A stretch of 64,000 bases of DNA from Bacteroidia bacterium (GCA_965216465.1 CBDCFW010000003.1:288001-352000); one strand, 5' to 3'; positions 1 through 14,156 are shown, counted from the stretch's first letter. Translations and numbers: made by a program. The notes: generated by a model from the sequence alone, not told the origin.

Positions 1-66
1 CCTTTAAAGGTTTCCAAGTGGAAAGGTAATCCAAGCCGCAGAAAGACTACTAGAAAAAGCTGGTAA
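1..66 (+). CDS. 3' end of a truncated basic hypothetical protein
   Basis: Frame 1 reads PLKVSKWKGNPSRRKTTRKSW*; its TAA overlaps the next ATG (TAATG). Confidence 0.4.
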   Translation, partial: PLKVSKWKGNPSRRKTTRKSW

Positions 67-257
67 TGTTAAAGTGGCTAAAGACAGGATTTGGTTGGCT
101 GAAAACAGCCAACCAATTCTACCGAAAGGTTAAGACCTCATTCAAAATGATTGAATGGGTTGGAGACGTTTTGGAATTTGCACAGAAAAGGTATGCTGAA
201 ATCTTTGAAATAGAAGACGACAGCGAAGTAGAACAGGAAAATCAGACCAATGAGTAA
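66..257 (+). CDS. Small amphipathic-helix phage protein
   Basis: Homologous to 10052-10276 (KW.K...F/W....., W...V...A, acidic tail) and in the same position. Confidence 0.75.
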   Translation: MLKWLKTGFGWLKTANQFYRKVKTSFKMIEWVGDVLEFAQKRYAEIFEIEDDSEVEQENQTNE

Positions 258-906
258 TGAAAGCGAAAAATATAGCCATCATTGTAGTGTCAATTGTCCT
301 CATTGTGGGGGGCTTCTTACTATACAAACGGCGCAAAAAAAAACGTTAGACGACCATCGTGAAAGTAGGCTAAAGTTAGCAGGTAAGGTGATTCTAAAAT
401 GGGAGGGGGGATATGTCAATGACCCCGACGATAGAGGAGGAGCAACCAACAAAGGTGTAACTTATGCTACTTATCAAAATCTAGCACATAGTGTTTTAAA
501 GGTATATCCAACGAAAAAGCATTTTGAAAGTCTTTCAGACAATGAAGTGCTGAAGATTATCGCCTGGTACTATGATAAGGTAAAAGGTGATCACTTAAAA
601 AGTGGAGCTGTTGCAGTAGGAATAACAGATTATTATTGGGGAAGTGGATTGTATGCCATCAAACGCATCCAATCAGCTTTAAATATCCATTACTCAAGAA
701 ACTTATCAGTTGATGGCGTAGTGGGAGCAAAAACTGTCCAGGCTATCAATTCGGTTCCTGCTAAACATATGCTATCAATCTTAAAGGAAGTACGAGCACA
801 ACACTATGCAGCGATTGTAAGACACGATGCAAGTCAAGGTAAATTCATAAACGGTTGGAACAATCGCAATTATGATGTCTTTAACTCTTTAATTGAATAT
901 GTATGA
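250..906 (+). CDS. Glycoside hydrolase family 108 lysozyme (endolysin) with C-terminal PG-binding region; true start uncertain
   Basis: EGGYVNDPDDRGGATNKGVT catalytic motif; VDGVVGAKT and F..GW.NR C-terminal motifs. Confidence 0.9.
   Translation: MSNESEKYSHHCSVNCPHCGGLLTIQTAQKKTLDDHRESRLKLAGKVILKWEGGYVNDPDDRGGATNKGVTYATYQNLAHSVLKVYPTKKHFESLSDNEVLKIIAWYYDKVKGDHLKSGAVAVGITDYYWGSGLYAIKRIQSALNIHYSRNLSVDGVVGAKTVQAINSVPAKHMLSILKEVRAQHYAAIVRHDASQGKFINGWNNRNYDVFNSLIEYV
257..349 (+). CDS. 30-aa single-TM peptide MKAKNIAIIVVSIVLIVGGFLLYKRRKKKR (absent from the ORF track)
   Basis: Translated by hand. Coupled by TAATG to the upstream gene; homologue of 10269-10457 (shared VLIV, gtcctcattgt). Confidence 0.75.
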   Translation: MKAKNIAIIVVSIVLIVGGFLLYKRRKKKR

Positions 907-1307
907 TCAATGAAATAGATATCGAAAAAGAAGTAATCCAAACGACTACTTTTAGGCAAAAACTAAATCCAATGTATTGGTTCAGACGCTTTGTACAACC
1001 TGCCTTCAGGCAAATTTCTTTCTATTCAGGAATTAACCTGGTATGGAAGATTACAGACGTGTTTATCAAAGTGCCAAAATTGATAAACGAAGAGGATGCA
1101 GATATGGTAAGCAGTAAAACAAGAAAACAACAATTGTTGAGTATTGTCTTACACATCTTATTTATAGCACTACCTCTTTTACTGATACTTAAAAAGAAAT
1201 GGTATGTCTTACCAGTCGTACCAATTCTTATGGCGTTTAATATCCTGGTACACTTACGAGGAATATACCTAGCAATCATGGTATATCGAAGTCATGCACG
1301 GAATTAA
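903..1307 (+). CDS. Hypothetical membrane protein (2 TM), holin candidate
   Basis: Two hydrophobic segments; overlaps the lysin stop (ATGA). Confidence 0.6.
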   Translation: MINEIDIEKEVIQTTTFRQKLNPMYWFRRFVQPAFRQISFYSGINLVWKITDVFIKVPKLINEEDADMVSSKTRKQQLLSIVLHILFIALPLLLILKKKWYVLPVVPILMAFNILVHLRGIYLAIMVYRSHARN

Positions 1308-1539
1308 ACCTACACTCATAGGGTTTGCTTCACTTGCAGGGGTTAATGTTGCTGAATTAACAGCAGAGAACCTAGAAAGCATTGAAGCAATCCTTATGAG
1401 CTTAGTTAAATGGATAATAGCAGGATTAACCATTTACACCCAAATCAAATCAATCAGAAATGAAAAAGCTAATAACCGGGTTGCTAATGATAGTAACCGT
1501 GCTAGTGGCTCCAGGAGCACTAGCAGAACAAACAAGTGA
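1294..1539 (+). CDS. Small membrane protein, holin-like
   Basis: Hydrophobic segments and basic tail; similar to 10834-11031. Confidence 0.6.
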   Translation: MHGIKPTLIGFASLAGVNVAELTAENLESIEAILMSLVKWIIAGLTIYTQIKSIRNEKANNRVANDSNRASGSRSTSRTNK

Positions 1540-1930
1540 CAACCTAAATTTTAACCTAAAAACAGAAATACAAATGTGTAACGAACATGTAAACTACGAG
1601 TTTGAATTAAGCGATACCAGACAACCATTGTTCTGCGATTCAAAACATCTTCTAGTAGGTGTTATAAATCACTTTTCAGATTTCACCAACTATAAGATCA
1701 ATACTGACATTGATCCTGGAACTGGTGCACCATGGGTAATAGACAGTGGCTTAAATGATGCAGAGATACTAATTAACTCGCTAAAATCAGGCGGCACTAA
1801 AATACCAATAGAACTGATAAAGAATATTCCTTTAGATCAGTGGCATGAAAGAGGAACAAGGGATATCAATGCGCCTATTGCCACTGGTAACACCCGTAGG
1901 TATGTTGTAATCAAGTGTAGACAGGCTTAG
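1460..1930 (+). CDS. Conserved phage protein (possibly structural); alternative start at 1574
   Basis: From M39 it aligns with 11012-11380 (MC.E..N..FE..D, GLN..EI.IN, PL......GTRD). Confidence 0.75.
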   Translation: MKKLITGLLMIVTVLVAPGALAEQTSDNLNFNLKTEIQMCNEHVNYEFELSDTRQPLFCDSKHLLVGVINHFSDFTNYKINTDIDPGTGAPWVIDSGLNDAEILINSLKSGGTKIPIELIKNIPLDQWHERGTRDINAPIATGNTRRYVVIKCRQA

Positions 1931-1932
1931 TC

Positions 1933-2118
1933 ATGGGATTAAGTAAAGAAAAATCCAAGCACTTCAACAAGAAAGTCAAAGAATTTTCTAAAACAGCTTG
2001 GGAAACATTCAACACCACTCACTTTGATTCACTAGCTGAATATCAAAATGAGAAGTTCTTAGTTGAGCAATCAATTAGAGAATTTCAACGCTCAGAACTT
2101 GATAAAGTAAAGGAGTAA
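1933..2118 (+). CDS. Small helical phage protein
   Basis: Homologous to 6735-6965 (AW..F...T.FD...E.......VEQ.I). Confidence 0.75.
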   Translation: MGLSKEKSKHFNKKVKEFSKTAWETFNTTHFDSLAEYQNEKFLVEQSIREFQRSELDKVKE

Positions 2119-2146
2119 ACATTGTAGCAGATCTGCTCAACATGCT

Positions 2147-2175
2147 AAAAGCCACCTTTTGCAGGTGGCTTTTTA
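2147..2175 (+). terminator. Intrinsic terminator, probably bidirectional
   Basis: aaaagccacct-tttgc-aggtggcttttt. Confidence 0.8.
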
Positions 2176-2354
2176 GTGATAATATACTGAAATTATATGT
2201 GAATTGGGTTATGTAAATAGATACAAATTGATATCTATTTATATGCAGTTTAATTTAAGGGATGGACGTAATATTGTTCACTGAATTGTAAAATGTTTTG
2301 GATATCCAAAACTTTGGAATGGATTTTGTACCTTTGTAACCGTTAAATAATACT

Positions 2355-2642
2355 ATGTCTAATAAAATAAGAGTAACTAATCATAAGGTCCTTGTGCTTT
2401 ATAGTTTTGATGAAGTAAATAAACTTTATACTCTTTCAACACTTGAAAGAGGAGGACCTCTTGTTGTGGATTCGGATTTCGAAACAGCTAAGAAAAAAAT
2501 GGCTGAGCAACTAATTGTTGTAAGCTCTCTTGGTAAATTAATGTTCTATGATAAATATAGGACTAATGAAGATAGGAAGACATCGTTGGCTAATAGTTTA
2601 GGGAAGGTTATAGAGGAGACGTATTTGGAACTTGTAGCATAG
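2355..2642 (+). CDS. Cargo protein, weakly HicB-like N-terminal fold
   Basis: Upstream TAccTTTG promoter motif; the pattern Y...LE.GG.LVV.SDFE.AKKKM.EQL recalls HicB. Confidence 0.5.
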   Translation: MSNKIRVTNHKVLVLYSFDEVNKLYTLSTLERGGPLVVDSDFETAKKKMAEQLIVVSSLGKLMFYDKYRTNEDRKTSLANSLGKVIEETYLELVA

Positions 2643-3152
2643 ATGTTAATTACCTATCGAGCACTAAGAGAACTTTTATATCAGAAATATGCAGAGAAGT
2701 CTCTGCAAGGAGTTATAGACGACTTTTCAGAATATTTTGATGAATCCCTCGCAACTGCAGAGCAGATTGAGGATTATGAGTATCTGTCAACATTCATTGA
2801 GAATAGAAAGGATATAGAAGAGAAATATCGTTTTTTCTGGAACTACAAGCAATGTTCGGTGCCAACGATGGTGGAGAAGCATGACTATTACACGGTTGAT
2901 GCATTATCAGTAATTGCTTATGATCATCCCGATATCGACGTAAGACATTTTGAACAGCTCATTGAAGAGATTGCAACAAGAGACAAGCACGATTTGGAGC
3001 AGTGGTTAGGTAGATTTAGAAGTTTGTACAAGGCTAGAGTAAATATTGGTAACGCGATACGAAGCTACAAATTAGGGTACATCGGAAGAAATGATCTTTG
3101 CTACTGCGGGAGTGGTAAGAAATACAAAAAGTGCCACGGGTTCAATAATTAA
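2643..3152 (+). CDS. Cargo protein with C-terminal SEC-C zinc-binding motif
   Basis: GRNDLCYCGSGKKYKKCHG. Confidence 0.85.
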   Translation: MLITYRALRELLYQKYAEKSLQGVIDDFSEYFDESLATAEQIEDYEYLSTFIENRKDIEEKYRFFWNYKQCSVPTMVEKHDYYTVDALSVIAYDHPDIDVRHFEQLIEEIATRDKHDLEQWLGRFRSLYKARVNIGNAIRSYKLGYIGRNDLCYCGSGKKYKKCHGFNN

Positions 3153-3296
3153 AACGATATCAAATCACTTTGTCCTGGAGCTGCTCGAGCTGAACAAATG
3201 ATATCAAATCCGTTTCCGGCGTCCAGGATCTCAGGGTAAATATGATATCAAATAACTTATCTGCAGCAGATCTGCAGCTGACCAAATGATATCAAA
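3151..3296. repeat. Four GATATCAAA repeats with exact 44-bp period
   Basis: Cores start at 3156, 3200, 3244 and 3288. Confidence 0.9.
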
Positions 3297-3383
3297 AGAA
3301 ATAACTATAGGTTTTGCTCCAATGTCTATATTTGAATGACATATTAAATTTGTTACGTAACATTAGGGATTGATGTGATCAAA

Positions 3384-3412
3384 TAAAAAGCCACCTGTAA
3401 AAGGTGGCTTTT
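3384..3412. terminator. Intrinsic terminator; inverted near-identical copy of 2147-2175
   Basis: taaaaagccacctgtaaaaggtggctttt, 28/29 identical to the reverse complement of 2147-2175. Confidence 0.8.
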
Positions 3413-3676
3413 CTGTTTTTAGATTAACTAAATCCATGCGAACATGGACAAAACCTTTAATGATCAAAAATAAAAGCCGTCTCCTCTGGAAACGGCAATT
3501 AATAAGGTTAGTTAGGTACTATTGCTAAATATAAACACGAAGATAACCTAAATGGTAACAAAACCTCCTGAATAATAGAAATGTATAGGAACTACTGAAT
3601 TAATTAGGTATACTTGATAGTCCTTAACTTATTTTACTACTGGTTATCTATTAATCAAAGTTGAGGTATTAACCCT

Positions 3677-3713
3677 AGGCCATCCCGAGTGGGGTTTTGG
3701 GATGGCCTTTTTT
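3677..3713 (+). terminator. Intrinsic terminator
   Basis: aggccatccc...gggatggcct followed by a T run. Confidence 0.75.
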
Positions 3714-3725
3714 GTTAATTAGAAA

Positions 3726-3965
3726 TCACTCAATCTTCTCAAGCTCCTTTAAATGATAAAAGAAGTTCTTAGTCTTGTCCTTGACATCTCTAAGTTGAAT
3801 TTCAAGTGATGAATTCTCATCGGTCAAAGACTTAATCCTATCACACATGGGAATGTAGGAGCGAAGCAATAATGCAAAAATTTCTGAATTGGTTTTAATG
3901 TAGGTCTTAGCTTTAATAGCCTCTAACTGTTTAGTCTGTTGATCTGTTAATCTTGATACTAGCAT
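3726..3965 (-). CDS. Probable ribbon-helix-helix/CopG-like DNA-binding protein with coiled-coil tail
   Basis: MLVSRLTDQQ..QLE.IK....IKTNSEIFALLLR; homologous to 7132-7368, which fixes the start. Confidence 0.7.
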   Translation of the reverse strand: MLVSRLTDQQTKQLEAIKAKTYIKTNSEIFALLLRSYIPMCDRIKSLTDENSSLEIQLRDVKDKTKNFFYHLKELEKIE

Positions 3966-4168
3966 AAATAAAATTTTAACATGGTTAAACATTTTCGAGT
4001 AGACTCTCGATCTCTCGAAATCATAGGCATCCAAAGGCGTAAGTGAAAAGCAGTTGTCAATATAAATGAAGGGCAGTAGGGTATAGGCCAGTGTTTAAGC
4101 ATTGACAACAATGTTCACGGGCCAATTTTGCACTCTGATTATGAGAAAAGAATAGGTATCTTTGGAGT

Positions 4169-4423
4169 GTGAGCAATAAAGAAAAGTTATCAGGTAAAGA
4201 GTTGACTATGTATAAGCAGATAGAAACAAACTATGAATATAATGGTAAAACCTTCAAAAATGATTATGTACACCAGATGAGCATTATAGGATATAAACGA
4301 ATAGAAATACCTGGTGTAGAGTTTATTGGTGTTGGTGGTCAGAATTATTTAGAAATCGAGAGGACATACAGAGATATGTTAGTCATGTTCTGCCAAGACC
4401 GAGGAATAACTGAGCTTGATTAA
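4169..4423 (+). CDS. Hypothetical protein
   Basis: 84-aa ORF with GTG start, preceded by TAtcTTTG. Confidence 0.55.
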   Translation: MSNKEKLSGKELTMYKQIETNYEYNGKTFKNDYVHQMSIIGYKRIEIPGVEFIGVGGQNYLEIERTYRDMLVMFCQDRGITELD

Positions 4424-4746
4424 TAAGGCAATTTAACACGTTTCAATTTCTTTGGCTTATCACCAATAGGGTTTGGCACAAACAATTGCTTAACATTCTC
4501 AAACACCTCAAAATGATGCAATAATTGCTCTTCTAAAGTTTCTATTTGCTTCTGAAGTGACATAATAGTGTCGAAATCTTCCATCGATCTACGCTGTAAT
4601 TTCATGTGCCGAATCAACATTCTTTCAACAATGTCATGTAATCCATTTGCATCATGATGGAAATATTTGAACTCTTTATAAGCTGCCTTAGCCTCATCAG
4701 AAAGCAGCGTAAATATTAGGGGTTTACCACATTCTTCACATTTCAT
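4420..4746 (-). CDS. Putative regulator with coiled coil and N-terminal CxxC
   Basis: Weakly similar to 11810-12172 (F.Y.H, heptads) and in the same position. Confidence 0.65.
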   Translation of the reverse strand: MKCEECGKPLIFTLLSDEAKAAYKEFKYFHHDANGLHDIVERMLIRHMKLQRRSMEDFDTIMSLQKQIETLEEQLLHHFEVFENVKQLFVPNPIGDKPKKLKRVKLPY

Positions 4747-4871
4747 AGACAGCAAAAAACTAATCAGGATTTTGAATATTTTGTATATAAAAAGATGCAA
4801 GCTGTTGAAAACGTGTGAATTATCGACGAATGATAAAACTAATATTTGAGTTCGAAATCAAATTAGTTATC

Positions 4872-5021
4872 ATGGTATTAATACTTAATCAACGAGAAGC
4901 TCGTATGCTTAAACGTCTCATACAAGGATATGAAAGACGAACTCCTGCAAAACGTCAGAAGCGTAAAATCACTGAAGGATTAAAATTAAAACTTAATGAT
5001 AAAAAGAAAGCCGCTGCATAA
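4872..5021 (+). CDS. 49-aa basic protein, candidate antisense-regulated gene
   Basis: Positional and weak sequence homologue of 12253-12444. Confidence 0.6.
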   Translation: MVLILNQREARMLKRLIQGYERRTPAKRQKRKITEGLKLKLNDKKKAAA

Positions 5022-5041
5022 AACTATGCGAGCGGCTTTTT
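5007..5041. terminator. Bidirectional terminator
   Basis: aaagccgct-gcata-aaac-tatgc-g-agcggcttt with an A run on the left and a T run on the right. Confidence 0.75.
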
Positions 5042-5214
5042 AATTTCTTAAGCGGTACTTAATCAAATTTAGGTTCGAAATCAAATTTTATCATGTTGAC
5101 CGCTTAGATGTATAACTTCTAAAGTTATTCACTTTCAAATATAAAAGCTAAACAAATGTACGTGAATGGATTAGCCACGAATGTTAAAACGTTGTTAACA
5201 AAAGAGTTATTATT

Positions 5215-5242
5215 TGTGCCTATAATTTATATTCCGCTAACC
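5215..5242 (+). other. dif-like XerCD site with degenerate XerD arm (element 1/2 junction)
   Basis: TGTGCCTATAA-TTTATA-TTCCGCTAACC, 11-6-11 layout; compare E. coli dif GGTGCGCATAA-TGTATA-TTATGTTAAAT. Confidence 0.85.
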
Positions 5243-5349
5243 GCTTTAGCACCAAAAAGACAGCGTTATCAACGAATTGTGGACTATTCGATTCCAAATG
5301 TTGAAAGTGCAAAACATTGTTAACAATTAAGCACAAAGTATGTGTTTAA

Positions 5350-6600
5350 TTGAAAAATCAAAATAAAGGAGATTGGCAGCGTAAAATACTGCATTCAATA
5401 GAAGTAGACAGTTTGAAGCTCTCGTTTGAGCTTAACCACTACGAACCGTTAAATCAAATCAAAATTCTTGATACTCGTCTAGGTACTGAATACCGAAAAA
5501 TTACTATTGATGGTGAAGAGATGGACGAGAAGCTCTACAAGGAGAATGCTCGACAATATGGAGCAGACAAAGCACCAATTTATATGAGTTTGGTTGCACG
5601 TCAAGACTTAGCAACGAAAGAAGTCAAAACGTATCTAGTAATATTAATCAATTCTAAGCATTTAGGAGCGCATTATTTCAAAGGTATAAAACGTCATAAT
5701 GTTGGTAACATATACGATGCCATAATAGCGACAAAAGCCGTAAGAATGGATTACAGCATCTTTATGCAGGGCAAGGTTACAGACTGTGATTTTAAGATGG
5801 ATTACCAAATGGAGTTTCACGAATGGATTAAACTAAATGAATTTGCAAGAAAGAGGACTAAGTTGCACACTCGCAGCGATTCGGGATATACGAGGTTTCC
5901 AAAAAAGGATAACGGAATTGACCGTGAAAATTACAAAATGTATGGTACTCAATGGAGCTTTAGAACAACAACGAGTTTTGCAACTGCACCATATATTAAA
6001 ATGTATCACAAAGGGCTAGAAGCAGAACATAGAAGTTCAGAGTTTTTTTCTTCTTATGAATTTGAGGGTTACGGTAATACGGTGATAGATTATAGCGATA
6101 TAGTAAGAACTGAGTATACTATCAAAAACAAAAAGCATTTTAAACAAGCTGGGATGGTCAAAGATGACCAAGACAACACGCTTGAAAATATTCTAAACTT
6201 TAACTATGAAACAAAGCTAAGTGCTTTAATAGATGGCTTTGCTGCTCATTGGAAAAAAGAGAAAGCAAGAATTACACAAGTAACAGGCTTAAAAGGCGTT
6301 CAGTTGATGCTTGCCGCTTTAATAGATGACCAAGTTAAACAAGGCGGAAAGAGTAAGTCAGAATTAAGAGATACGGCTCTTTCACTTCTTCCAAAAAAGA
6401 ATCAAGAACGCTACAAGAAGCTGTTTGAAGAGGTGTGGAGATATCTAGCAATTGAAGAGGATTTTAGAGTTGAAGCAGAAAATAATGAAGCTGCATACAA
6501 TTGGTTTAAAATCTTGGTTGAGGGTTCAAAGAATACCAAACTAAGAGGAATGTTTACAGACGAAGCAACATATACGGAAAGATGGCACGAAGCAAGTTAA
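5350..6600 (+). CDS. Rolling-circle replication initiator (Rep_trans / gpII-X-like)
   Basis: Ordered motifs VDSLKLSF, VTDCDFKMD, IKMYHKGLE (catalytic Tyr) and IVRTEYTI. Confidence 0.75.
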   Translation: MKNQNKGDWQRKILHSIEVDSLKLSFELNHYEPLNQIKILDTRLGTEYRKITIDGEEMDEKLYKENARQYGADKAPIYMSLVARQDLATKEVKTYLVILINSKHLGAHYFKGIKRHNVGNIYDAIIATKAVRMDYSIFMQGKVTDCDFKMDYQMEFHEWIKLNEFARKRTKLHTRSDSGYTRFPKKDNGIDRENYKMYGTQWSFRTTTSFATAPYIKMYHKGLEAEHRSSEFFSSYEFEGYGNTVIDYSDIVRTEYTIKNKKHFKQAGMVKDDQDNTLENILNFNYETKLSALIDGFAAHWKKEKARITQVTGLKGVQLMLAALIDDQVKQGGKSKSELRDTALSLLPKKNQERYKKLFEEVWRYLAIEEDFRVEAENNEAAYNWFKILVEGSKNTKLRGMFTDEATYTERWHEAS

Positions 6601-6722
6601 GTAATTATTTCATTGGCAAAGATGGAAGGTTATATTTAAAGAAGTATGGGAGTGAATATAGTGTCAGAGGGTTTGCCAATTTAGGAGAACGGTTATTTGT
6701 GATAACAGATGGAAAAAATTAA
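6582..6722 (+). CDS. 46-aa hypothetical protein MARSKLSNYFIGKDGRLYLKKYG... (absent from the ORF track)
   Basis: Translated by hand; overlaps the rep 3' end and fills the gap to 6735. Confidence 0.55.
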   Translation: MARSKLSNYFIGKDGRLYLKKYGSEYSVRGFANLGERLFVITDGKN

Positions 6723-6734
6723 ATATTTAATAAA

Positions 6735-6965
6735 ATGTCAAAAGAAGATTTCAAAACAAAAACAAAGACAATGATTGAGAATTTCAATACTGCGTCAAAC
6801 GATGCTTGGGCGGAGTTTGAAGCTCGTACAGACTTCGATACGGTTCAAGAAAGAGAAGATGCAAGGCTACAAGTTGAGCAACAAATTAAAATCGACCATA
6901 AAAAGCTAAAAGAGGATATCAAAGCTGAAAAGGAGCTTTACAAGGCTGAAGCAAAGGCAGAATAA
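6735..6965 (+). CDS. Small helical phage protein
   Basis: Homologue of 1933-2118. Confidence 0.75.
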   Translation: MSKEDFKTKTKTMIENFNTASNDAWAEFEARTDFDTVQEREDARLQVEQQIKIDHKKLKEDIKAEKELYKAEAKAE

Positions 6966-6999
6966 GAGACTTATTTGTAATTCATGTTTGTTTAAAAGT

Positions 7000-7029
7000 A
7001 AAAGGCAGTCCGTAAATGGGCTGCCTTTT
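7000..7029. terminator. Bidirectional terminator
   Basis: aaaaggcagtcc-gtaaat-gggctgcctttt. Confidence 0.8.
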
Positions 7030-7034
7030 CTGTT

Positions 7035-7136
7035 TAAACGATATCAAAAAGTGAGTTCAGATCCTGGAAAAAACACTTGAAATGATATCAAATACTTTCT
7101 CCAGGAAAGATCTGCAGCTGATTAAATGATATCAAA
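7035..7136. repeat. Three GATATCAAA repeats with exact 44-bp period
   Basis: Cores start at 7040, 7084 and 7128. Confidence 0.9.
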
Positions 7137-7368
7137 TATCCATCATCTTCTTTAAATGGTAGGTAAAATCCTTTACGTTGTTTTTAATGGAATTGTTCTG
7201 TATTGATAAAGATGAATTTTCTTCTACCAAGTCTTTAATTCTAGATTGACTAGGTAAATAAGCACGTAAGCAAAGGGCAATAACATCTGAGTTGGTTTTA
7301 ATACCTGTATGCTCCTTAATGAGTTCAATTTGTTGTTTCTGTTCGTCTGTTAATCTTGATATAAGCAT
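7132..7368 (-). CDS. Probable RHH/CopG-like DNA-binding protein with coiled coil
   Basis: Clear homologue of 3726-3965. Confidence 0.7.
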   Translation of the reverse strand: MLISRLTDEQKQQIELIKEHTGIKTNSDVIALCLRAYLPSQSRIKDLVEENSSLSIQNNSIKNNVKDFTYHLKKMMDI

Positions 7369-7375
7369 GATATTA

Positions 7376-7579
7376 TTAATTATTAGGTGGTGTTATATAT
7401 CCAATACCGTTTTGAAAAAAGTGTTTTGCTGTACAAACAACATAGGGCTTTTTGTTAGGGTGCTTCTCGCTGTATCGGTTGCGAATAGTGCGTGTAAAAA
7501 TGAAGAGTTTTGGCTTTTGTGGTTGTGATGCTAAGAAAGTAGCAGCCTCGCTGTACGTTTCAAATTCAAATTGTGTCAT
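7376..7579 (-). CDS. Hypothetical phage protein
   Basis: Tightly spaced minus-strand operon. Confidence 0.6.
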   Translation of the reverse strand: MTQFEFETYSEAATFLASQPQKPKLFIFTRTIRNRYSEKHPNKKPYVVCTAKHFFQNGIGYITPPNN

Positions 7580-7585
7580 AATGAT

Positions 7586-7783
7586 TTATTTAATTTTTGC
7601 GGCTGTGAAAGATTTGAGGTATTCTAGGTTGTCAATAGCTTGGTTTAAGCTTGCTACTGAAAGGTTAAGGTAAATGGAAGAGGTGTATTCACGTCTTAAC
7701 GGTGCTTGTTCGGCATACTCGCGAATCAAGTCTCTTTTCATTTTAAGTGTGATTAGTGTGTCGTTGATTAAGTCGATTGTCAT
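7586..7783 (-). CDS. Hypothetical helical phage protein
   Basis: First gene of the minus-strand operon. Confidence 0.6.
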   Translation of the reverse strand: MTIDLINDTLITLKMKRDLIREYAEQAPLRREYTSSIYLNLSVASLNQAIDNLEYLKSFTAAKIK

Positions 7784-7924
7784 GTTTCAATTATTTAAAA
7801 AGTTATACTTCAGGCGTAAGCAATTGCAGACCTGCTTCGCTCCGCCAATATTTTTTTTCGGAAAAACCGAAATATGAAACAAACACAAGCAAAAAGGCTT
7901 TCATAGAACTATAAAAGAGGGGGA

Positions 7925-8300
7925 CAAAAGTTTATTCCGTCAGGATCAAACTTTTGGCAAGAGGGTAGTGGCTAGTGTTTATGCGTTCGACTGAAATCCG
8001 ACTTGCTTAAACTCGTTGAAATAATTCTTTTTCTCTGAAAAAATTATCCAATTATTACTACTGTAAAAATGTCGTTTGTGATACCCAATTAGGGTGTCAC
8101 AAATCTGCCCGAAATAGGGCTTAAAAATCCCAATTTTTCAAAATCGAAAAATCCCACCTTATGATGGTGGGGAATTTGCCTCAAATTTGAGGTTTTTGCT
8201 TTGTCCAAAAAACGGACGAAATCTGAGTCCTTTTTTTGGTGTTTTTGCAGACCAATATCGACCCGATTTTAAGGCTTGATTTGCTACTCAAGTAGCGAAA
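7925..8300. other. Hairpin-dense intergenic region, candidate single-strand origin or packaging signal
   Basis: Stems at 7925-7956, 8075-8103, 8107-8120, 8149-8177, 8179-8192, 8205-8239 and 8280-8299. Confidence 0.55.
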
Positions 8301-8431
8301 TAATCTCGGTCAATTTTTCATCATGATAATCAGCAACTTACCGGTTTTTGGGTTTTTTAAATTTTCATAACCCGATTTGCTGCCCTCTCTTTGTATTCAC
8401 AAAACGAAGTAAAAGAGTTAAAATTTAGAAT

Positions 8432-9169
8432 ATGGAAGTATTTAGCGGACAAATCCCTGCAACGGGAAAATTCGGAGAAAAACAACTAGAAACAAGACTT
8501 GGAGAGTTAATTTTCCAAATGTCGGGCGTGGGGTTATGTACACCTGCGAACTTGCGACTTGCAAAAATTCAGTTGACAAAGGTTGATAGAAAGACAGGGC
8601 AAAAGGAGTTTTTGCCAAAAATTGATTTGTATACGCTGTTTGAATTAACAGCACATCACGAGGGGCACTTTCAACAGTCTAATGATGCGGCTTTTGGAAT
8701 GGTAGATTTAACACCTTTTGGCTCTTTAGAGTTAAATAGTAGTGAATACCTGTCTTTAAGTGGAGAGGGTTTTCAGGACACTCTTCAGCTTGATATCTTC
8801 ACTCAAGAAGAACCGCACAAGGCTGAAAAGGCTCTAAAGTATGAAACAAATCATGTACCTGTTGGTACTGCTCCAAAAGATGTAAACTTGGGTTCAGTTG
8901 TGGCAATAGCTATGCCAACTGGCGAGGTTGATTATGTAGAAATTACCTATGCTAACGGTAAAACGATTAGAAAGGGTCAAGCAGAATTAACAGCAGAGCA
9001 GCTGAAACGAGACAATGTGATTGCGACAAGCAGCCTTACAGGCGGCACAATTACTATGAACTATATTGACTACTTCTACATAGAAGTAAGTGACGCTGTA
9101 AGTATGCGTTACAAGCCCGAGGGTTCAAACGCTCATGAAATTTACCTTGTTCGTGAGGTAACGGCATAA
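8432..9169 (+). CDS. Candidate major capsid protein (double jelly-roll)
   Basis: 245 aa, alternating beta-strand pattern, two repeated strand-turn-strand-helix units; first gene of the structural operon. Confidence 0.6.
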   Translation: MEVFSGQIPATGKFGEKQLETRLGELIFQMSGVGLCTPANLRLAKIQLTKVDRKTGQKEFLPKIDLYTLFELTAHHEGHFQQSNDAAFGMVDLTPFGSLELNSSEYLSLSGEGFQDTLQLDIFTQEEPHKAEKALKYETNHVPVGTAPKDVNLGSVVAIAMPTGEVDYVEITYANGKTIRKGQAELTAEQLKRDNVIATSSLTGGTITMNYIDYFYIEVSDAVSMRYKPEGSNAHEIYLVREVTA

Positions 9170-9258
9170 GAAATTCATTTATTTATTGGTTTAGGGTTCA
9201 GGAAGCGGGCAGTATACGGAGATAGTTAGCTGCCCGCAATTCCGAAAATAAAAAGCAG

Positions 9259-9666
9259 ATGGTGAGAGAAAAAAAGAGAAAAGGACTGTTTAACGGTCGA
9301 ATAAAAAAAGCATTGGGAAGCCAATTCAAAAGAAAGGTTGGCGGTACTAAGCTAGGTAATGCGGTAAGGGGTTTTGTACGAAACAAAACAGGCGGTTTGC
9401 TTGGCAACGGCTTATTGATGCTAAAAGAGAATGAAACAAAAGCAGAGACAGATGCAAAAGCAAGAGAAGTTCTTACCGATACTGCGGCGGCTGCGACTGA
9501 GAAATTTGAGAGTTCTCAGAGAAAAGCTCTTGAAGATGTTGAAAGAAAGGCAACGATGGAAAGACTCAAAAAAATAGGCTTTACGGTTGTACTTCCTTTA
9601 TTAGTCGTGGCGGGTGTAGTGGTTTACATATTCAAAAACAAAAAAAAGTCTAAAAGACGTAGATAA
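9259..9666 (+). CDS. Basic N-terminal, C-terminal-TM protein (candidate DNA-binding virion/membrane protein)
   Basis: K/R/G-rich N-terminus, TM segment VVLPLLVVAGVVVYIF, KKKSKRRR tail. Confidence 0.7.
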   Translation: MVREKKRKGLFNGRIKKALGSQFKRKVGGTKLGNAVRGFVRNKTGGLLGNGLLMLKENETKAETDAKAREVLTDTAAAATEKFESSQRKALEDVERKATMERLKKIGFTVVLPLLVVAGVVVYIFKNKKKSKRRR

Positions 9667-9668
9667 TT

Positions 9669-10043
9669 ATGGCAGGAAATAGCAAGAAATCAAATAACAA
9701 GCACAGCAAAAAAAGCGGGTGCAAAGTCATAACGCCGTACGATGGTGGAGATGGAAGTCTTTTCATTAACGGTTGGAAAGTTGAGAAAGGTGTACTATGG
9801 AGTATCACTGTAAATCAAGCAAAGAAAGATGGCAAGTATATGCCTGTTTCAGAAAGTAATTCGGGTAAAATGTGGATGAATGTGATGGTTGTTGCAAAAG
9901 CACCGTTACAAGAGAACAGATATGTTTACGGCTTGTGTAACTTAGAAAACAATAAGGTGTATATCAAAGAGTGGAATTGGATAATGAATCCAAAAGGTGG
10001 TAAAGGTGGTTACTGCGGAAAACACATTTCTAACGATTATTAA
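9669..10043 (+). CDS. Beta-rich aromatic/basic phage protein (candidate ssDNA-binding protein)
   Basis: W/Y/K-rich strands and NP.G..GGY.G C-terminus; the function is inferred. Confidence 0.65.
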   Translation: MAGNSKKSNNKHSKKSGCKVITPYDGGDGSLFINGWKVEKGVLWSITVNQAKKDGKYMPVSESNSGKMWMNVMVVAKAPLQENRYVYGLCNLENNKVYIKEWNWIMNPKGGKGGYCGKHISNDY

Positions 10044-10051
10044 AAACGGCT

Positions 10052-10276
10052 ATGAAATGGGTTAAATCAGTATCAGACTTTTTCGATAAGGTAGTCAAGT
10101 ATGGAAAAAAGCTAAATACGATTGTAAAGGTTTTTGACTGGTTGAATGGCGTTATTCAGTACGCTAAAACTACGTGGGATGAAAAGTTTAATGAATCTAT
10201 CCGAGAAGTGATTGAGGATATAAAAGAAGATATCGCAGAAGAGGTAACAGAAAAAACAGAAACAGCAAATGGTTAA
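10052..10276 (+). CDS. Small amphipathic-helix phage protein
   Basis: Homologue of 66-257. Confidence 0.75.
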   Translation: MKWVKSVSDFFDKVVKYGKKLNTIVKVFDWLNGVIQYAKTTWDEKFNESIREVIEDIKEDIAEEVTEKTETANG

Positions 10277-10457
10277 TAGAAGAAATACAAGAGGGAAATC
10301 AAACGGTAAAAAGTGGGTTTTATGGGTAATAGTTGGAGTTGTCCTCATTGTAGCACCGTTTTTCATCTTCAAGAAGTTGAGAACGAAAGCAAAAGAGGCA
10401 ATCAAGAAAGTAGCAGCGAAGTTTTCAAAAAAAAAGGCAACAGAAGCAGTAGCCTAA
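10269..10457 (+). CDS. Single-TM small protein
   Basis: WVLWVIVGVVLIVAPFFIF TM segment; homologue of 257-349. Confidence 0.75.
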   Translation: MVNRRNTRGKSNGKKWVLWVIVGVVLIVAPFFIFKKLRTKAKEAIKKVAAKFSKKKATEAVA

Positions 10458-10837
10458 CAAAGAATTTCACGCTTAAAGAATTTGCTTGCAAATGTGGTGC
10501 GGCTGTTCCTGACAAGTATTACAACAACGTCAAAACACTAGCAGAAAATTTACAAGTCCTTAGAGACCATTTTAACGGTGCTAGACGAATAAAAGTAAAC
10601 TCAGGATATAGAACACCTGACTATAACAAAAGGGTAGGGGGTTCTCCAAAATCACAACATTTACTTGCAAAAGCTGCGGATATCGAAATTGACGGTTACA
10701 CGACAAAAGAAGTAGCAGAGATTATTGAAATGCTAATACAAGAGGGCAAAATGAAGCAGGGCGGTATTGGTATTTATAACACTTTTGTTCACTACGATAT
10801 CAGAGGTAAGCGGGCTAGATGGGATTTGAGAAAATGA
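10313..10837 (+). CDS. Peptidase M15A (D-Ala-D-Ala carboxypeptidase family) endolysin; true start uncertain
   Basis: NFTLKEFACKCG, NSGYR...N..VGG...SQH....AAD and FVHYD.RG zinc-peptidase motifs. Confidence 0.9.
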   Translation: MGFMGNSWSCPHCSTVFHLQEVENESKRGNQESSSEVFKKKGNRSSSLTKNFTLKEFACKCGAAVPDKYYNNVKTLAENLQVLRDHFNGARRIKVNSGYRTPDYNKRVGGSPKSQHLLAKAADIEIDGYTTKEVAEIIEMLIQEGKMKQGGIGIYNTFVHYDIRGKRARWDLRK

Positions 10838-11031
10838 GTTATACAAGAGATATGATAGTCGGAAGTGTTGGAGCGGGTTCCATTGAATTGGTAGACCAAA
10901 TCGCGGCACATCCGACTACTTTTAGCATGATACTCCAAGCAATTATTGCTCTTGGTACTATTGCTAAAATAGGTAACAATTGGTTGAAAGAACGTAAAAA
11001 GAAAAAAGAAGATGTGCGGCGAAGTAAGTAA
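10834..11031 (+). CDS. Small membrane protein, holin-like
   Basis: ATGA-coupled to the lysin stop; similar to 1294-1539. Confidence 0.65.
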   Translation: MSYTRDMIVGSVGAGSIELVDQIAAHPTTFSMILQAIIALGTIAKIGNNWLKERKKKKEDVRRSK

Positions 11032-11380
11032 CGGTAATTTTGAGATATACGACTCAATTGCTAACGTGTTGGAAATTCCATTTAATCACATTATCTGTGC
11101 AGGATTGTCTAACGGTCAACAAATTGGTGGTTTGCAAAACATCGATTCTGACCCTGAAGTAATATCAAGCGTTGGCGGTCTAAATGAACATGAGATATTC
11201 ATTAATAAAATGGTGGGTTATCCTCAAAGTGGAGATACACCCGACTTCTCAGGTTTATTAAGCAAAATGCCATTGCACGCTTATCAGCCAAAAGGCACTA
11301 GAGACGTTACAAATATTAACTTAATGAATTCGGCTTGGAATGGTAAATTCTTGGTATGGGTTTGTAAAAATGATAACTAA
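11012..11380 (+). CDS. Conserved phage protein (possibly structural)
   Basis: Homologue of 1574-1930. Confidence 0.75.
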   Translation: MCGEVSNGNFEIYDSIANVLEIPFNHIICAGLSNGQQIGGLQNIDSDPEVISSVGGLNEHEIFINKMVGYPQSGDTPDFSGLLSKMPLHAYQPKGTRDVTNINLMNSAWNGKFLVWVCKNDN

Positions 11381-11389
11381 AAAATTACT

Positions 11390-11815
11390 ATGGTTGGAAA
11401 AATAAAACAAGGTGTACAGATGGTAAGTAAGGTTAATCCAATGTATTTAATTGGCGGTTTATTACTATTTGTGTTTGTCTTCTTAGGCAAAAGAATAAGA
11501 GAAAGATTCAATACAGCAAGAACCGTTAACGAGTGGTTTGGGACAAAGAATTTGAAAGAGGGTAGCGACGGCGAAAATATCTCGCTAAGTGCTATTGCAT
11601 ACGAAATTTATGATGCGTTTTACAATAACGATTATTTAGGATTGACAGAGGATGAAGCTGCGGCAATAGCAGCCGTTCAAAAGGTGCATCCAAGAGATAT
11701 GAAGCAGCTCGCAAAGGAGTATGCTAAAATAGGGGGTCGAAATAAAGTGTTAATGCACGATTTGAATAAATACTTGTCTTCTGCTCAAAAATCAGCCATT
11801 AAAGATTGGTTATAA
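11390..11815 (+). CDS. N-terminal-TM protein with annexin-repeat-like C-terminal domain
   Basis: A..IYDAF...G.TEDEAA.I......QL...Y......L..DL...LS pattern. Confidence 0.6.
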   Translation: MVGKIKQGVQMVSKVNPMYLIGGLLLFVFVFLGKRIRERFNTARTVNEWFGTKNLKEGSDGENISLSAIAYEIYDAFYNNDYLGLTEDEAAAIAAVQKVHPRDMKQLAKEYAKIGGRNKVLMHDLNKYLSSAQKSAIKDWL

Positions 11816-12172
11816 TGTTCTTTGACGTTGTGAGTTTGGCTCTTGATTTAACACTTGGCGAGTTAGTGCATCAGGTTCTAACAGGTTGAGCAACAACTTA
11901 ACAAGTCGTTGTTTAAATTGGTGTTCAAAATTGGAAGTTTCAGAAAGTTGTCTTTGCAATTCTTCGATATGAGACTCCAATTTATCAACATCCTTATAGT
12001 GGTTCATGTTTTTATTTTGAACTTCAATATAGCGGTCAATTAGGTGTCTAAATGCGAGTGTTGTATCATAGCCGTGCAAGTAGCGAAATTGCTCAACTAC
12101 ACGATTTTGATGAGGTTCAAGTCCATGTATTTCAAATTTTTTAGATAGTGTGTATTTCCTTTTCTTAGTCAT
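11810..12172 (-). CDS. Putative regulator with coiled coil
   Basis: Weak homologue of 4420-4746, divergent from 12253. Confidence 0.65.
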   Translation of the reverse strand: MTKKRKYTLSKKFEIHGLEPHQNRVVEQFRYLHGYDTTLAFRHLIDRYIEVQNKNMNHYKDVDKLESHIEELQRQLSETSNFEHQFKQRLVKLLLNLLEPDALTRQVLNQEPNSQRQRTL

Positions 12173-12252
12173 TTATTGTGGATAAGTAGTCACGGCAAAG
12201 AAATGAAAAACTTATAAGATTTGAAGTAGCAAAACAATTAAAATTTAAGTGA

Positions 12253-12444
12253 ATGACTATATCGAAAAATAATGTCTCGCTGTGCATTTCATATCAAGCA
12301 GCTAAGGAATTAAGAAGAGATTTACAATTTGCCAAATCAAGGCGAAAGTTTCCAAGTCGTTATGCTGATAGCAATTTGGAGAAAGTTAATAAGAGTATTA
12401 ACCGAGCTGAAAATAAAAAGGCTGCTCTAAAGAGAACAGCCTAA
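12253..12444 (+). CDS. 63-aa basic protein, candidate antisense-regulated gene
   Basis: Positional homologue of 4872-5021. Confidence 0.6.
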   Translation: MTISKNNVSLCISYQAAKELRRDLQFAKSRRKFPSRYADSNLEKVNKSINRAENKKAALKRTA

Positions 12445-12500
12445 ATATTTTATTGGAGCATTAAGCAAATGTTAGCAAAACAATTTAATAGCTCCAAAAG
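12411..12500 (-). ncRNA. Candidate ~90-nt antisense sRNA
   Basis: Minus-strand TAACTTTG at 12509-12502, hairpin 12453-12497, terminator 12419-12442 with minus-strand U tract. Confidence 0.45.
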
Positions 12501-12584
12501 ACAAAGTTAGCGTTTAACCGCTTAATTGTTTAACAAATGTATTTCGGTGTATCATATAAGCAAAATGTTGATTACTAACAAATG

Positions 12585-12612
12585 TTAGCCTATAATTTAT
12601 ATTATGTTAACC
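12585..12612 (+). other. dif: dif site (XerCD), right boundary of the island
   Basis: TTAGCCTATAA-TTTATA-TTATGTTAACC; XerD arm 9/11 identical to E. coli TTATGTTAAAT. Confidence 0.88.
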
Positions 12613-14143: not shown

Positions 14144-14156
14144 ACTAAATTTCATT

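Follow-up and report, generated by a model that had tools for sequence, protein, structure and literature searches.

The left-hand part of the window (the whole 64,000-nt stretch analyzed here, from contig CBDCFW010000003.1, below C3, of a Bacteroidia bacterium) raises the question of how small viral units without a recombinase gene came to lie one after another between dif-like sites, and whether they are separate proviruses that entered through the host Xer system or parts of some other island.

Dif-like sites and layout of the insertion

Two sites, the sequences of which were read directly, delimit the right-hand unit (E2):

5215–5242, + strand: site B, TGTGCCTATAA-TTTATA-TTCCGCTAACC
12585–12612, + strand: site C, TTAGCCTATAA-TTTATA-TTATGTTAACC

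The sites have the same direction and a spacing of 7,370 bp; the first-pass annotation of this DNA had reported them as two direct 11-6-11 sites, and both sequence and spacing were reproduced on re-reading. The 16-mer common to sites B and C was present in exactly two copies in the 3.23-Mb genome, with a one-mismatch copy at C3:284926 (3,075 nt upstream of the window start), and a third dif-like site (A) starts at C3:284923, 3,078 nt ahead of the window. When the 28-mer was searched with a tolerance of 7 substitutions, sites A, B and C were the sole matches genome-wide. The 11-mer TATAATTTATA had seven genome copies (both strands counted), four of which were placed in the island on the + strand, and these placements gave a fourth site at C3:281967, 2,956 nt to the left of the third. 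The insertion as a whole measures 22.2 kb and consists of a 3.6-kb cargo region, a 3-kb unit (E0), E1 (8,292 bp) and E2 (7,370 bp). Of the earlier description as a tandem array of small proviruses, the stacking was retained, but the extent was not, since the array runs over 22.2 kb and four sites and includes non-viral units: scans of E0 and the 3.6-kb cargo region with Pfam, PHROG and PADLOC revealed no viral genes, and PADLOC revealed no defense system in them.

E1 and E2 lie between dif-like sites in direct repeat (A, B and C), site C being a full dif, and the XerC arm core and spacer are perfect at both junction sites of each unit. Judging by the arms, site B is a hybrid that combines the XerC arm and spacer of the E1 attP with the XerD arm of the E2 attP. 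Site C is composed, on the same reading of the arms, of a XerC arm from the E2 attP and a XerD arm that is host DNA contiguous with TPR/gyrA. At its far left, the 22-kb insertion has no recognizable junction. A candidate dif relic located just past a 95-aa gene was rejected as not significant (its score was reached by 298 of 500 shuffles).

Site C as the chromosomal dif

The host genes that follow site C are:

12941–14239, − strand: TPR protein, host flank (Pfam TPR families; syntenic in relatives)
14157–16736, − strand: gyrA, host flank (syntenic in relatives)

A 24-mer of site C was found in a single copy in 16 of the 24 same-genus genomes and in one copy each in four of the 16 sister-family genomes, while the reversed-sequence control gave one match each in two of 41 genomes. 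A TPR homologue followed the site at 18 of the 20 relatives' loci. Six relatives showed the order 95-aa gene–dif–TPR–gyrA and an empty site, nothing lying between the first two, and the distance between these two was 22.2 kb in the source genome. Thus, an unoccupied dif beside TPR/gyrA, which the first-pass annotation had suggested seeking in relatives, exists in six of them, and its identification of the outer site as dif agrees with the single-copy occurrence in the genus, the conserved synteny and the absence of any further dif-like site genome-wide (≤7 substitutions to the 28-mer). The GC-skew check that it had also proposed came out in part: in the closed relative G007 the skew flipped at the site (+0.036 on one side, −0.069 on the other), but past site C in the source genome, along the last 80 kb of the contig, the skew was approximately zero and not negative. 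Taken by sequence and context, site C is the working chromosomal dif.

The near-zero skew of the source genome would also fit a different explanation, in which the sites are not chromosomal dif but internal repeats of one composite island of 15–22 kb. This is very improbable given that relatives carry this site in one copy, unoccupied, beside TPR/gyrA, that the skew flips there in G007, that E1 and E2 each have their own Rep, capsid gene and lysin, and that the unit sizes fit the 7,642-nt genome of phiCjT23. Site C is therefore treated below as dif, and E1 and E2 as separate units.

Gene content of E1 and E2

E1 begins outside the window: its left site, its Rep gene (397 aa) and its capsid gene (243 aa) occupy the interval from 3,078 to ~680 nt ahead of position 1, so that the upstream dif-like site with rep and capsid genes anticipated from the window sequence does occur (at C3:284923). 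The features of E1 within the window are:

1–5214, + strand: right-hand 5.2 kb of E1 (whole unit C3:284923–293242, 8,292 bp)
250–906, + strand: endolysin, GH108 and PG_binding_3 (PF05838 1.5e-17, PF09374 3.3e-10, phrog_315 6e-33)
3726–4034, − strand: 102-aa protein, candidate regulator (55% identity to E2 7132–7368, phmmer 5e-26)
4420–4800, − strand: terminal 126-aa gene beside the att site (phmmer 9.8e-5 to E2 11810–12172)

The features of E2 are:

5350–6600, + strand: putative rolling-circle initiator, 416 aa, remote Rep_trans/Phage_CRI relative
7132–7368, − strand: 78-aa protein, partner of E1 3726–4034
7376–7783, − strand: two further ORFs following the 78-aa gene
8432–9169, + strand: major capsid protein, minimal double jelly-roll, 245 aa (model, profile, phrog_20547)
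9259–9666, + strand: virion or membrane protein, 135 aa (phrog_20088 virion structural protein, 5e-7)
9669–10043, + strand: homologue of phiCjT23 gp07 and phi18:4 gp6, 124 aa (phmmer 4e-7 and 7e-7, respectively)
10313–10837, + strand: endolysin, peptidase M15 (PF08291 2.5e-20; phrog_894 endolysin 7e-38)
11012–11380, + strand: conserved 122-aa protein (homologues in E1 at 1460–1930 and in G014; phmmer 1.7e-6)
11810–12172, − strand: terminal 120-aa gene beside the att site, homologue of E1 4420–4800

Nine homologous gene pairs were found between E1 and E2 (phmmer), and E1 extends to window position 5242, in line with the earlier observation that a diverged second element ends at the first site. 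The pair 3726–4034/7132–7368 is the best conserved besides Rep; the 102-aa protein of E1 had no family match in Pfam or PHROG and may be a regulator. E1 is also related to a unit in the relative G014 (identity: Rep 62%, MCP 61%; terminal gene 4420–4800, 32%). In E1 and E2 alike, full-length ORFs without internal stops encode Rep, the capsid protein and the lysin. The earlier statement that a Rep, structural genes and a lysin lie between sites B and C with no recombinase is matched by the Rep-like, capsid and peptidase M15 genes listed above.

Relationship to phages phiCjT23 and phi18:4

The AlphaFold model of the E2 capsid protein had a pLDDT of 96.4 (a first model built from a 3-sequence alignment, pLDDT 51.6, was discarded), and its top Foldseek match was the phiCjT23 capsid 7zzz_A (E 6e-26, TM 0.83/0.85), followed by FLiP, PRD1 and PM2. 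The capsid family profile matched 7zzz_J (phiCjT23 P5) with E 1.9e-25, and phrog_20547 (virion structural protein) also matched the E2 capsid, the identity of which to the phiCjT23 capsid was ~17% in the structural alignment. The 3-sequence capsid profile gave no match against the PDB. The protein encoded at 9259–9666 was similar to phi18:4 gp5 (phmmer 8e-12), which is structural by proteomics according to that record, and the test of the next protein, 9669–10043, was run against a 28-protein set. The capsid, gp5-like and gp6/gp07-like genes follow one another in the same order as in phi18:4 and phiCjT23. The unit lengths of 7,370 and 8,292 bp are within the 6–8.4 kb range of phiCjT23-like phages (phiCjT23, 7,642 nt).

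Direct searches were less productive: no entry of the phage collection was matched by Rep2, MCP2 or MCP1 in tblastn, word-index protein searches with MCP2 and Rep2 returned the queries alone, and a scan for related loci with alignment A1 yielded nothing from viral contigs and, from genome contigs, only the G014 locus. The E2 Rep had no direct Pfam, PHROG or NCBIfam match. The Rep family profile A4 aligned with the phi18:4 Rep (annotated PF02486) at an hhalign probability of 93.6% (E 2e-7) and, with the Rep profile, phiCjT23 gp03 was reached at 63% (E 7e-5); one of the 21 family members matched PF05144 (3.8e-4), and there was an Atlas lead to Phage_CRI. Rep sits upstream of the capsid gene in both units, and its homology to Rep_trans-type initiators is remote; the E1/E2 Rep is accordingly given as a putative, remotely Rep_trans-like rolling-circle initiator. 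Rep profiles gave only chance matches against the PDB, and a link to Rep_1 was dismissed after hhalign of the E1/E2 profile with the Rep_1-type Rep of G113 revealed no relation. No homologue of the spike (gp13) was detected by phmmer at E up to 0.01, a sequence-only comparison that a diverged spike could escape.

Recombinases and the route of integration

None of the 39 ORFs scanned matched a recombinase family, and the four PF00589 matches of the genome all lie on other contigs. The host encodes XerD (342.9 bits, cut-off 329.6) and a second recombinase for which XerC was the best match (274 bits, under the NCBIfam XerC cut-off). DUF3653 (XafT) was absent among the ORFs, the best genome-wide match having E 0.98 on another contig. 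An inverted second att site was not found either; the island's reverse-strand matches all proved to be palindromic images of sites A and Z.

Of the eight further genomes that carry this capsid gene, six have the provirus enclosed by dif-like sites in direct repeat (of the remaining two, one has a contig end and one, a 2.5-kb contig, was left out). The same site is used by unrelated modules, namely Rep_1 units in G097 and G113 and an IetAS unit without a found Rep in G014, and the occurrence of unrelated replication and cargo modules at one site points to host-encoded machinery. In every case examined, the crossover regenerates an intact dif. Taken together, E1 and E2 are most probably distantly related proviruses of the phiCjT23/Cellulophaga phi18:4 group, stacked head to tail as IMEXs (integrative mobile elements exploiting Xer) that use host XerC/XerD at the chromosomal dif (probability of both points jointly, about 85%). 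Thus, the proposal that these are Xer-exploiting proviruses of Bacteroidota gained support from the dif identity, the lack of a tyrosine recombinase on the contig and the host XerD and XerC-like genes. We infer the Xer dependence from these features; the order of strand exchange, the protection from excision and the present-day activity considered below are likewise presumptive.

Most E1/E2 ORFs have no family assignment and no activator of the XafT/DUF3653 type is present, which would also suit integration by the elements' own Rep nuclease or by an unrecognized small-ORF recombinase, the host Xer proteins being uninvolved. This is improbable, as three unrelated modules (the E1/E2 Rep, Rep_1 in G097 and G113, and the G014 IetAS unit) share the site, dif is rebuilt intact in each case examined, and the attP portion common to them coincides exactly with the XerC arm core plus spacer. 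Host XerC/XerD remain the preferred agents in what follows.

attP design and proposed mechanism

The site in the phiCjT23 virion genome is ATGAACTATAA-TTTATA-GTATGATTTGC, and that of phi18:4 is TTGTACTATAA-TTTATA-GTATGTAAATT. The attPs deduced for E1 and E2 contain a canonical XerC arm, a dif-identical spacer and a poor XerD arm, a design shared with phiCjT23, where the XerD arm is of the GTATG type; the XerD arm at the E1 left junction likewise starts with GTATG. The attP lies on the gene strand in E1/E2 and on the opposite strand in phiCjT23. The circle junction predicted by the first-pass annotation is the attP deduced for E2. The three XerD-arm changes that it had noted in the inner site are present, but they represent the phage's own attP arm and not decay of dif; the phiCjT23 virion attP has the same design.

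According to the proposed mechanism, an attP that keeps the dif XerC arm core and 6-nt spacer, with a divergent XerD arm, would be carried by a double-stranded replicative form, which would recombine with dif. The left junction would then combine the host-side XerC arm with the phage XerD arm, and the right junction the phage XerC arm with the host XerD arm, making a working dif again. The next element would enter at this right junction, with older units shifted to the left; were entry always to occur there, the newest unit would therefore be E2, which adjoins TPR/gyrA. Loss of the proviruses through FtsK-driven dimer resolution is probably prevented by the divergent XerD arm of the inner junctions.

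Excision and possible decay

The stretch was found in two runs of a single sample, as metagenome contigs of low depth (~2–3). These showed no joint indicative of excision or a circle, no read across an empty site and no tandem-independent junction, a result uninformative on activity. The single listed joint was taken to come from another organism, its contig matching nothing beyond the dif site and a portion of the TPR gene. A 25-mer of site B, common to the predicted E2 circle junction, had no exact match in the viral and metagenome contig collections. The failure of both approaches to detect a circular form, the lack of a phmmer match for the spike, the absence of viral genes in the leftward units (E0 and the 3.6-kb cargo region) and an internal stop in the G014 capsid gene are all compatible with units that entered via Xer and are now fixed, decaying remnants producing neither excision products nor virions. 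This state is possible yet rather unlikely for E1 and E2, whose Rep, capsid and lysin ORFs are uninterrupted and whose junctions all retain a perfect XerC arm core and spacer.

Comparison with known systems and distribution

Kejzar et al. (2022; PMC9719478) described dif-flanked phiCjT23-like prophages of Flavobacterium and, in the available text, proposed XerC/XerD integration, so that the route itself is already published for these prophages. The shared features in that text are a size of 6–8.4 kb, Rep followed by a double-jelly-roll capsid of ~240 aa, the lack of an integrase and 28-nt dif motifs at both flanks. Unlike phiCjT23, the present units occur in another host lineage (the genomes with a capsid 62% identical to that of phiCjT23 belong to the same class, not the same order), their capsid is only ~17% identical, the Rep is remote and the lysins differ. 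Two diverged units are stacked here, whereas the word "tandem" is absent from the available main text of PMC9719478. The host lineage, the heterologous stacking and the divergence of the Rep are what these units add.

The capsid family and the order of the downstream structural genes are shared with the Cellulophaga phages phi18:4, phi12:2, phi12a:1, phi48:1 and Omtje. Among detectable relatives of the E1/E2 Rep, the closest is the Rep_trans-type initiator of phi18:4, a phage that also carries an attP-like site. Unlike E1/E2, the Cellulophaga ssDNA phages were isolated free (6.5 kb); no identifiable lysogeny genes were reported for them, and neither "XerC" nor "dif site" appears in the available text of PMC11946311.

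The IMEXs of Vibrio include CTXphi, VGJphi, TLCphi and dif-type double-jelly-roll prophages, with tandem arrays (available parts of PMC12715192 and PMC6744903). As far as these sources describe them, they resemble E1/E2 in being integrase-less at dif, in rebuilding dif at one junction and in forming successive heterologous arrays, and TLCphi also has an attP with a poor XerD arm. In contrast to the TLCphi-type IMEX, E1/E2 have no XafT/DUF3653 gene; unlike CTXphi, they have no inverted second site for a folded ssDNA hairpin attP; and host phylum, phage lineage and Rep all differ from those of the Vibrio elements. The gonococcal genetic island of Neisseria is, according to the portion of PMC6744903 available, large and non-viral, whereas small proviruses and small cargo units are found here.

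The capsid family was present in five of 191 genomes of the order and in six of 401 genomes of a class-wide sample, the source genome being counted in both. Xer-dependent lysogeny of small membrane-containing ssDNA phages would thus reach beyond Flavobacterium, and phiCjT23-type phages form stacks at dif both among themselves and with non-viral cargo, like the Vibrio IMEXs. The 11 junctions form a natural series of attP variants for XerD-arm control of integration and excision in a phylum whose Xer biology is little studied. It should be noted that stacks of 15–22 kb are easily miscalled as a single prophage in annotation.

A broader reading is offered tentatively, as a possibility with the odds against it: the Bacteroidota dif might act as a stacking dock where arriving phiCjT23-type phages rebuild dif on the gyrA side and older units are displaced outwards and stripped or replaced by cargo, the recurrent first-position G of the phage XerD arm might be a XafT-independent, phylum-specific shield from FtsK excision, and the Cellulophaga ssDNA phages might be temperate via Xer. 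If so, the attP in these cultured phages would imply an Xer-based temperate life. Examples of cargo under this reading are the IetAS defense unit in G014 and the secreted-protein genes in the source genome.

Dif-like sites in the genome

The first-pass annotation had proposed two directly oriented dif-like sites in the window; both positions were borne out (5215-5242 and 12585-12612, both +, spacing 7,370 bp). The window corresponds to C3:288001-352000 of genome G000, and upstream of it, where the annotation had suggested looking for a further site, two more were found on the same contig (C3).

Dif-like 28-mers (XerC arm, 6-nt spacer, XerD arm), from left to right
Site Z, C3:281967, + strand, TAAGGTTATAA-TTTATA-GCCATCCTGTT, with the exact 11-mer TATAATTTATA
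Site A, C3:284923, left of the window, + strand, TGTGCCTATAA-TTTATA-GTATGTTCCTA
Site B, window 5215-5242, + strand, TGTGCCTATAA-TTTATA-TTCCGCTAACC, read directly
Site C (the outer site), window 12585-12612, + strand, TTAGCCTATAA-TTTATA-TTATGTTAACC, read directly

The 16-mer common to sites B and C had exactly two copies in the 3.23-Mb genome and a one-mismatch copy at C3:284926, left of the window, and sites A, B and C were the sole genome matches to the 28-mer at up to 7 substitutions. The 11-mer TATAATTTATA had only seven copies in the genome, both strands counted; three site searches combined placed four of these copies in the island, all on the + strand.

The chromosomal dif is site C. At up to 3 mismatches, a 24-mer from it had a single match in each of 16 of the 24 genomes of the genus and 4 of the 16 from the sister family, and the reversed 24-mer, used as a control, gave one match each in two genomes. 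Of 20 loci in relatives, 18 had a TPR homologue after the site, oriented as it is in the window; the two others were that of genome G014 and one on a contig ending 46 nt past the site. The unoccupied dif that had been expected next to the TPR and gyrA genes was present in six relatives (G007, G009, G015, G016, G017 and G020) in the order DUF3817 95-aa gene, site, TPR, gyrA, with from tens of bases to about 130 bp between the 95-aa gene and the site. Between dif and the stop codon of TPR lay about 330 bp in the genome under study (G000) versus about 60-100 bp in relatives. In the closed genome of the relative G007, mean GC skew was +0.036 on one side (200 kb) and -0.069 on the other, and its sustained fall began at the site. 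The GC-skew check that had been proposed was positive in G007. G000 itself gave weaker support, with skew positive up to site C and about zero over the 80 kb from there to the contig end.

Layout of the insertion

The host 95-aa gene (C3:278089-278376) lies 22.2 kb from site C; therefore, all of the intervening DNA is an insertion by comparison with the six relatives.

Units of the insertion, from left to right
Cargo region, 3.6 kb, leftmost, followed by site Z: two paralogous T9SS-sorted proteins and a 308-aa protein
E0, 2,956 bp, between sites Z and A: four ORFs without an assigned function, one matching phrog_4780
E1, 8,292 bp, between sites A and B: provirus
E2, 7,370 bp, between sites B and C: provirus

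Sites A and B were identical over all 11 XerC-arm letters and one further letter, and therefore the unit left of site A ended in the arm of E1; despite this same terminal arm, it had no genes in common with E1. No significant dif relic was detected at the far-left end of the insertion. It should be noted that 6.5 kb of the inserted DNA, between the 95-aa gene and E1, lies left of the window (C3:278377-284922; L006:8377-14922); its two paralogous proteins are Por_Secre_tail proteins, and PADLOC gave no defence matches in it. GC skew over the stack (C3:280001-300000; window 1-12000 and upstream) was +0.15 to +0.17 versus about +0.04 in the flanking replichore, which fits units with genes almost all on one strand.

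Virion, lysis and putative replication genes of E1 and E2

A profile of the 245-aa capsid ORF of E2 and 59 relatives, drawn from a 1.84-billion-protein library (63 matches at E <= 0.001), matched PDB 7ZZZ chain J, "Major capsid protein P5", over its whole length (E = 1.9e-25); according to PMC9719478, 7ZZZ is phiCjT23, an ssDNA phage with a double-jelly-roll capsid. The AlphaFold model of this protein (pLDDT 96.4) had the phiCjT23 capsid as its best match (TM 0.83/0.85, E = 6e-26), followed by FLiP, PRD1/PR772 and PM2. The two E2 genes after the capsid gene matched gp5 and gp6 of phi18:4, another such phage, and gp07 of phiCjT23, with the order kept.

E1 and E2 had nine homologous gene pairs, with only 25-30% identity for Rep and capsid, and their lysins differed (GH108 with PG_binding_3 in E1, peptidase M15 in E2). 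The top non-Rep pair was a small reverse-strand protein (window 3726-4034 and 7132-7368, both on the - strand; 55% identity), which had no family match and may be a common or exchanged lysogeny regulator. A 169-aa E1 protein (window 2643-3152) ended in a SEC-C zinc motif (PF02810, 8.6e-10) and had no strong E2 counterpart; its sole match, a weak one (phmmer 0.0027), was the reverse-strand ORF of 65 aa at 7586-7783.

The first gene past each left site encoded a putative Rep (416 and 397 aa, 29% mutual identity), which had no Pfam, PHROG or NCBIfam match. The profile of the 21-member Rep family aligned with the phi18:4 Rep, annotated PF02486 (hhalign probability 93.6%, E = 2e-7), and with phiCjT23 gp03 (63%, E = 7e-5), the alignments spanning conserved D-x-D, G-x-Q-x3-R, Y-x-K and R-x-E-Y blocks; weaker leads pointed to Phage_CRI (an Atlas lead and one of the 21 family members). 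The Rep of E1 and E2 is thus a putative rolling-circle initiator.

Recombinases, attP sites and proposed integration

No recombinase family match was obtained among the 39 ORFs scanned. The genome contained four PF00589 matches, none of them on contig C3; one was the host XerD (342.9 bits versus a cut-off of 329.6), and another had XerC as its best match (274 bits, under the cut-off).

Assuming crossover inside the spacer at each junction, the attP of E2 was deduced as TTAGCCTATAA-TTTATA-TTCCGCTAACC, the same circle junction that the first-pass annotation had predicted, and that of E1 as TGTGCCTATAA-TTTATA-GTATGTTCCTA. In both, the XerC arm core and the spacer were complete and the XerD arm was divergent. 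The same attP design was found in the genomes of phiCjT23, at the record origin (ATGAACTATAA-TTTATA-GTATGATTTGC), and phi18:4 (KC821628.1, about 5160-5187, reverse strand, TTGTACTATAA-TTTATA-GTATGTAAATT). The XerD arm started with GTATG in 7 of 11 left-armed junctions or attPs.

The architecture of the stack and its regularity are established. In the proposed mechanism, host XerC and XerD would join the double-stranded replicative form to dif by recombination, and the right junction would remain a working dif and take the next element; since entry would occur at the right junction, E2 would be the newest unit. The divergent XerD arm of the inner junctions could limit FtsK-dependent deletion, by analogy with what has been described for the gonococcal island and the TLCphi attP (PMC6744903). 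The TLC type was the closest design to E1 and E2; the TLC-type activator XafT (DUF3653) and a CTX-type inverted site pair were absent.

Capsid-positive relatives and related loci

The capsid profile was positive in 5 of the 191 genomes of the order and in 6 of the 401 genomes of a class-wide sample (G000 in both counts), that is, in nine genomes in total, eight besides G000.

Dif-like sites in the other capsid-positive genomes
G014: three sites, spacings 7,091 and 6,544 bp
G097: C10:15879-31722 (L071/L072), tandem 7,908-bp provirus copies with identical capsid scores, three sites 7,908 bp apart
G113: two sites 8,078 bp apart, adjoining TPR/gyrA
G199: two sites, spacing 7,661 bp
G244: two sites, spacing 7,837 bp
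G489: C1, sites at locus positions 4569 and 12626 (L078), reverse strand, spacing 8,057 bp
G219: one site, then contig end
G068: capsid gene on a 2.5-kb contig, left out of the site comparison

The right end of the G113 provirus recurred at the contig start, indicating either a second copy in tandem or the junction of a circle. The G489 junction kept the dif spacer and XerD arm and had a divergent XerC arm, and thus mirrored the window's design. The Rep of the G097 provirus was of the Rep_1 (PF01446) type, unlike that in the window, so replication modules have been exchanged within the capsid family.

In G014 (L031, G014:C8:171500-191400, reverse strand; oriented 4491-11582), a 7.1-kb non-viral unit adjoined an E1-like provirus. 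It lay between two dif-like sites with the phage-type GTATG XerD arm, encoded IetA and IetS, a defence pair (413 and 934 bits in PADLOC), together with a 555-aa protein of unknown function, and looks like a defence cassette carried as a Xer-dependent element.

In Flavobacterium, PMC9719478 described 57 putative prophages of the phiCjT23-like kind, 6,021-8,407 bp long, with Rep followed by the capsid gene and 28-nt dif motifs at the flanks, and proposed XerC/XerD integration; the word "tandem" does not occur in its main text. Heterologous arrays of integrative mobile elements exploiting Xer (IMEX), dif-type double-jelly-roll prophages among them, were reported in Vibrio (PMC12715192). What is new here is a host beyond the lineage in which the phiCjT23-like hits fall, a heterologous stack that includes cargo units, a Rep family that has diverged and an attP on the gene strand.

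Possible temperate lifestyle of phage phi18:4

The cultured Cellulophaga phage phi18:4 may be temperate via Xer. PMC11946311, which mentions neither Xer nor dif, reported plaques with turbid rims and could identify no lysogeny genes. A 20-nt motif combining the phi18:4 XerC-arm core and spacer with the canonical TTATG matched at least 118 genome-contig stretches, with one match per stretch among the matches listed; these were mostly from Flavobacteriaceae, one Cellulophaga included.
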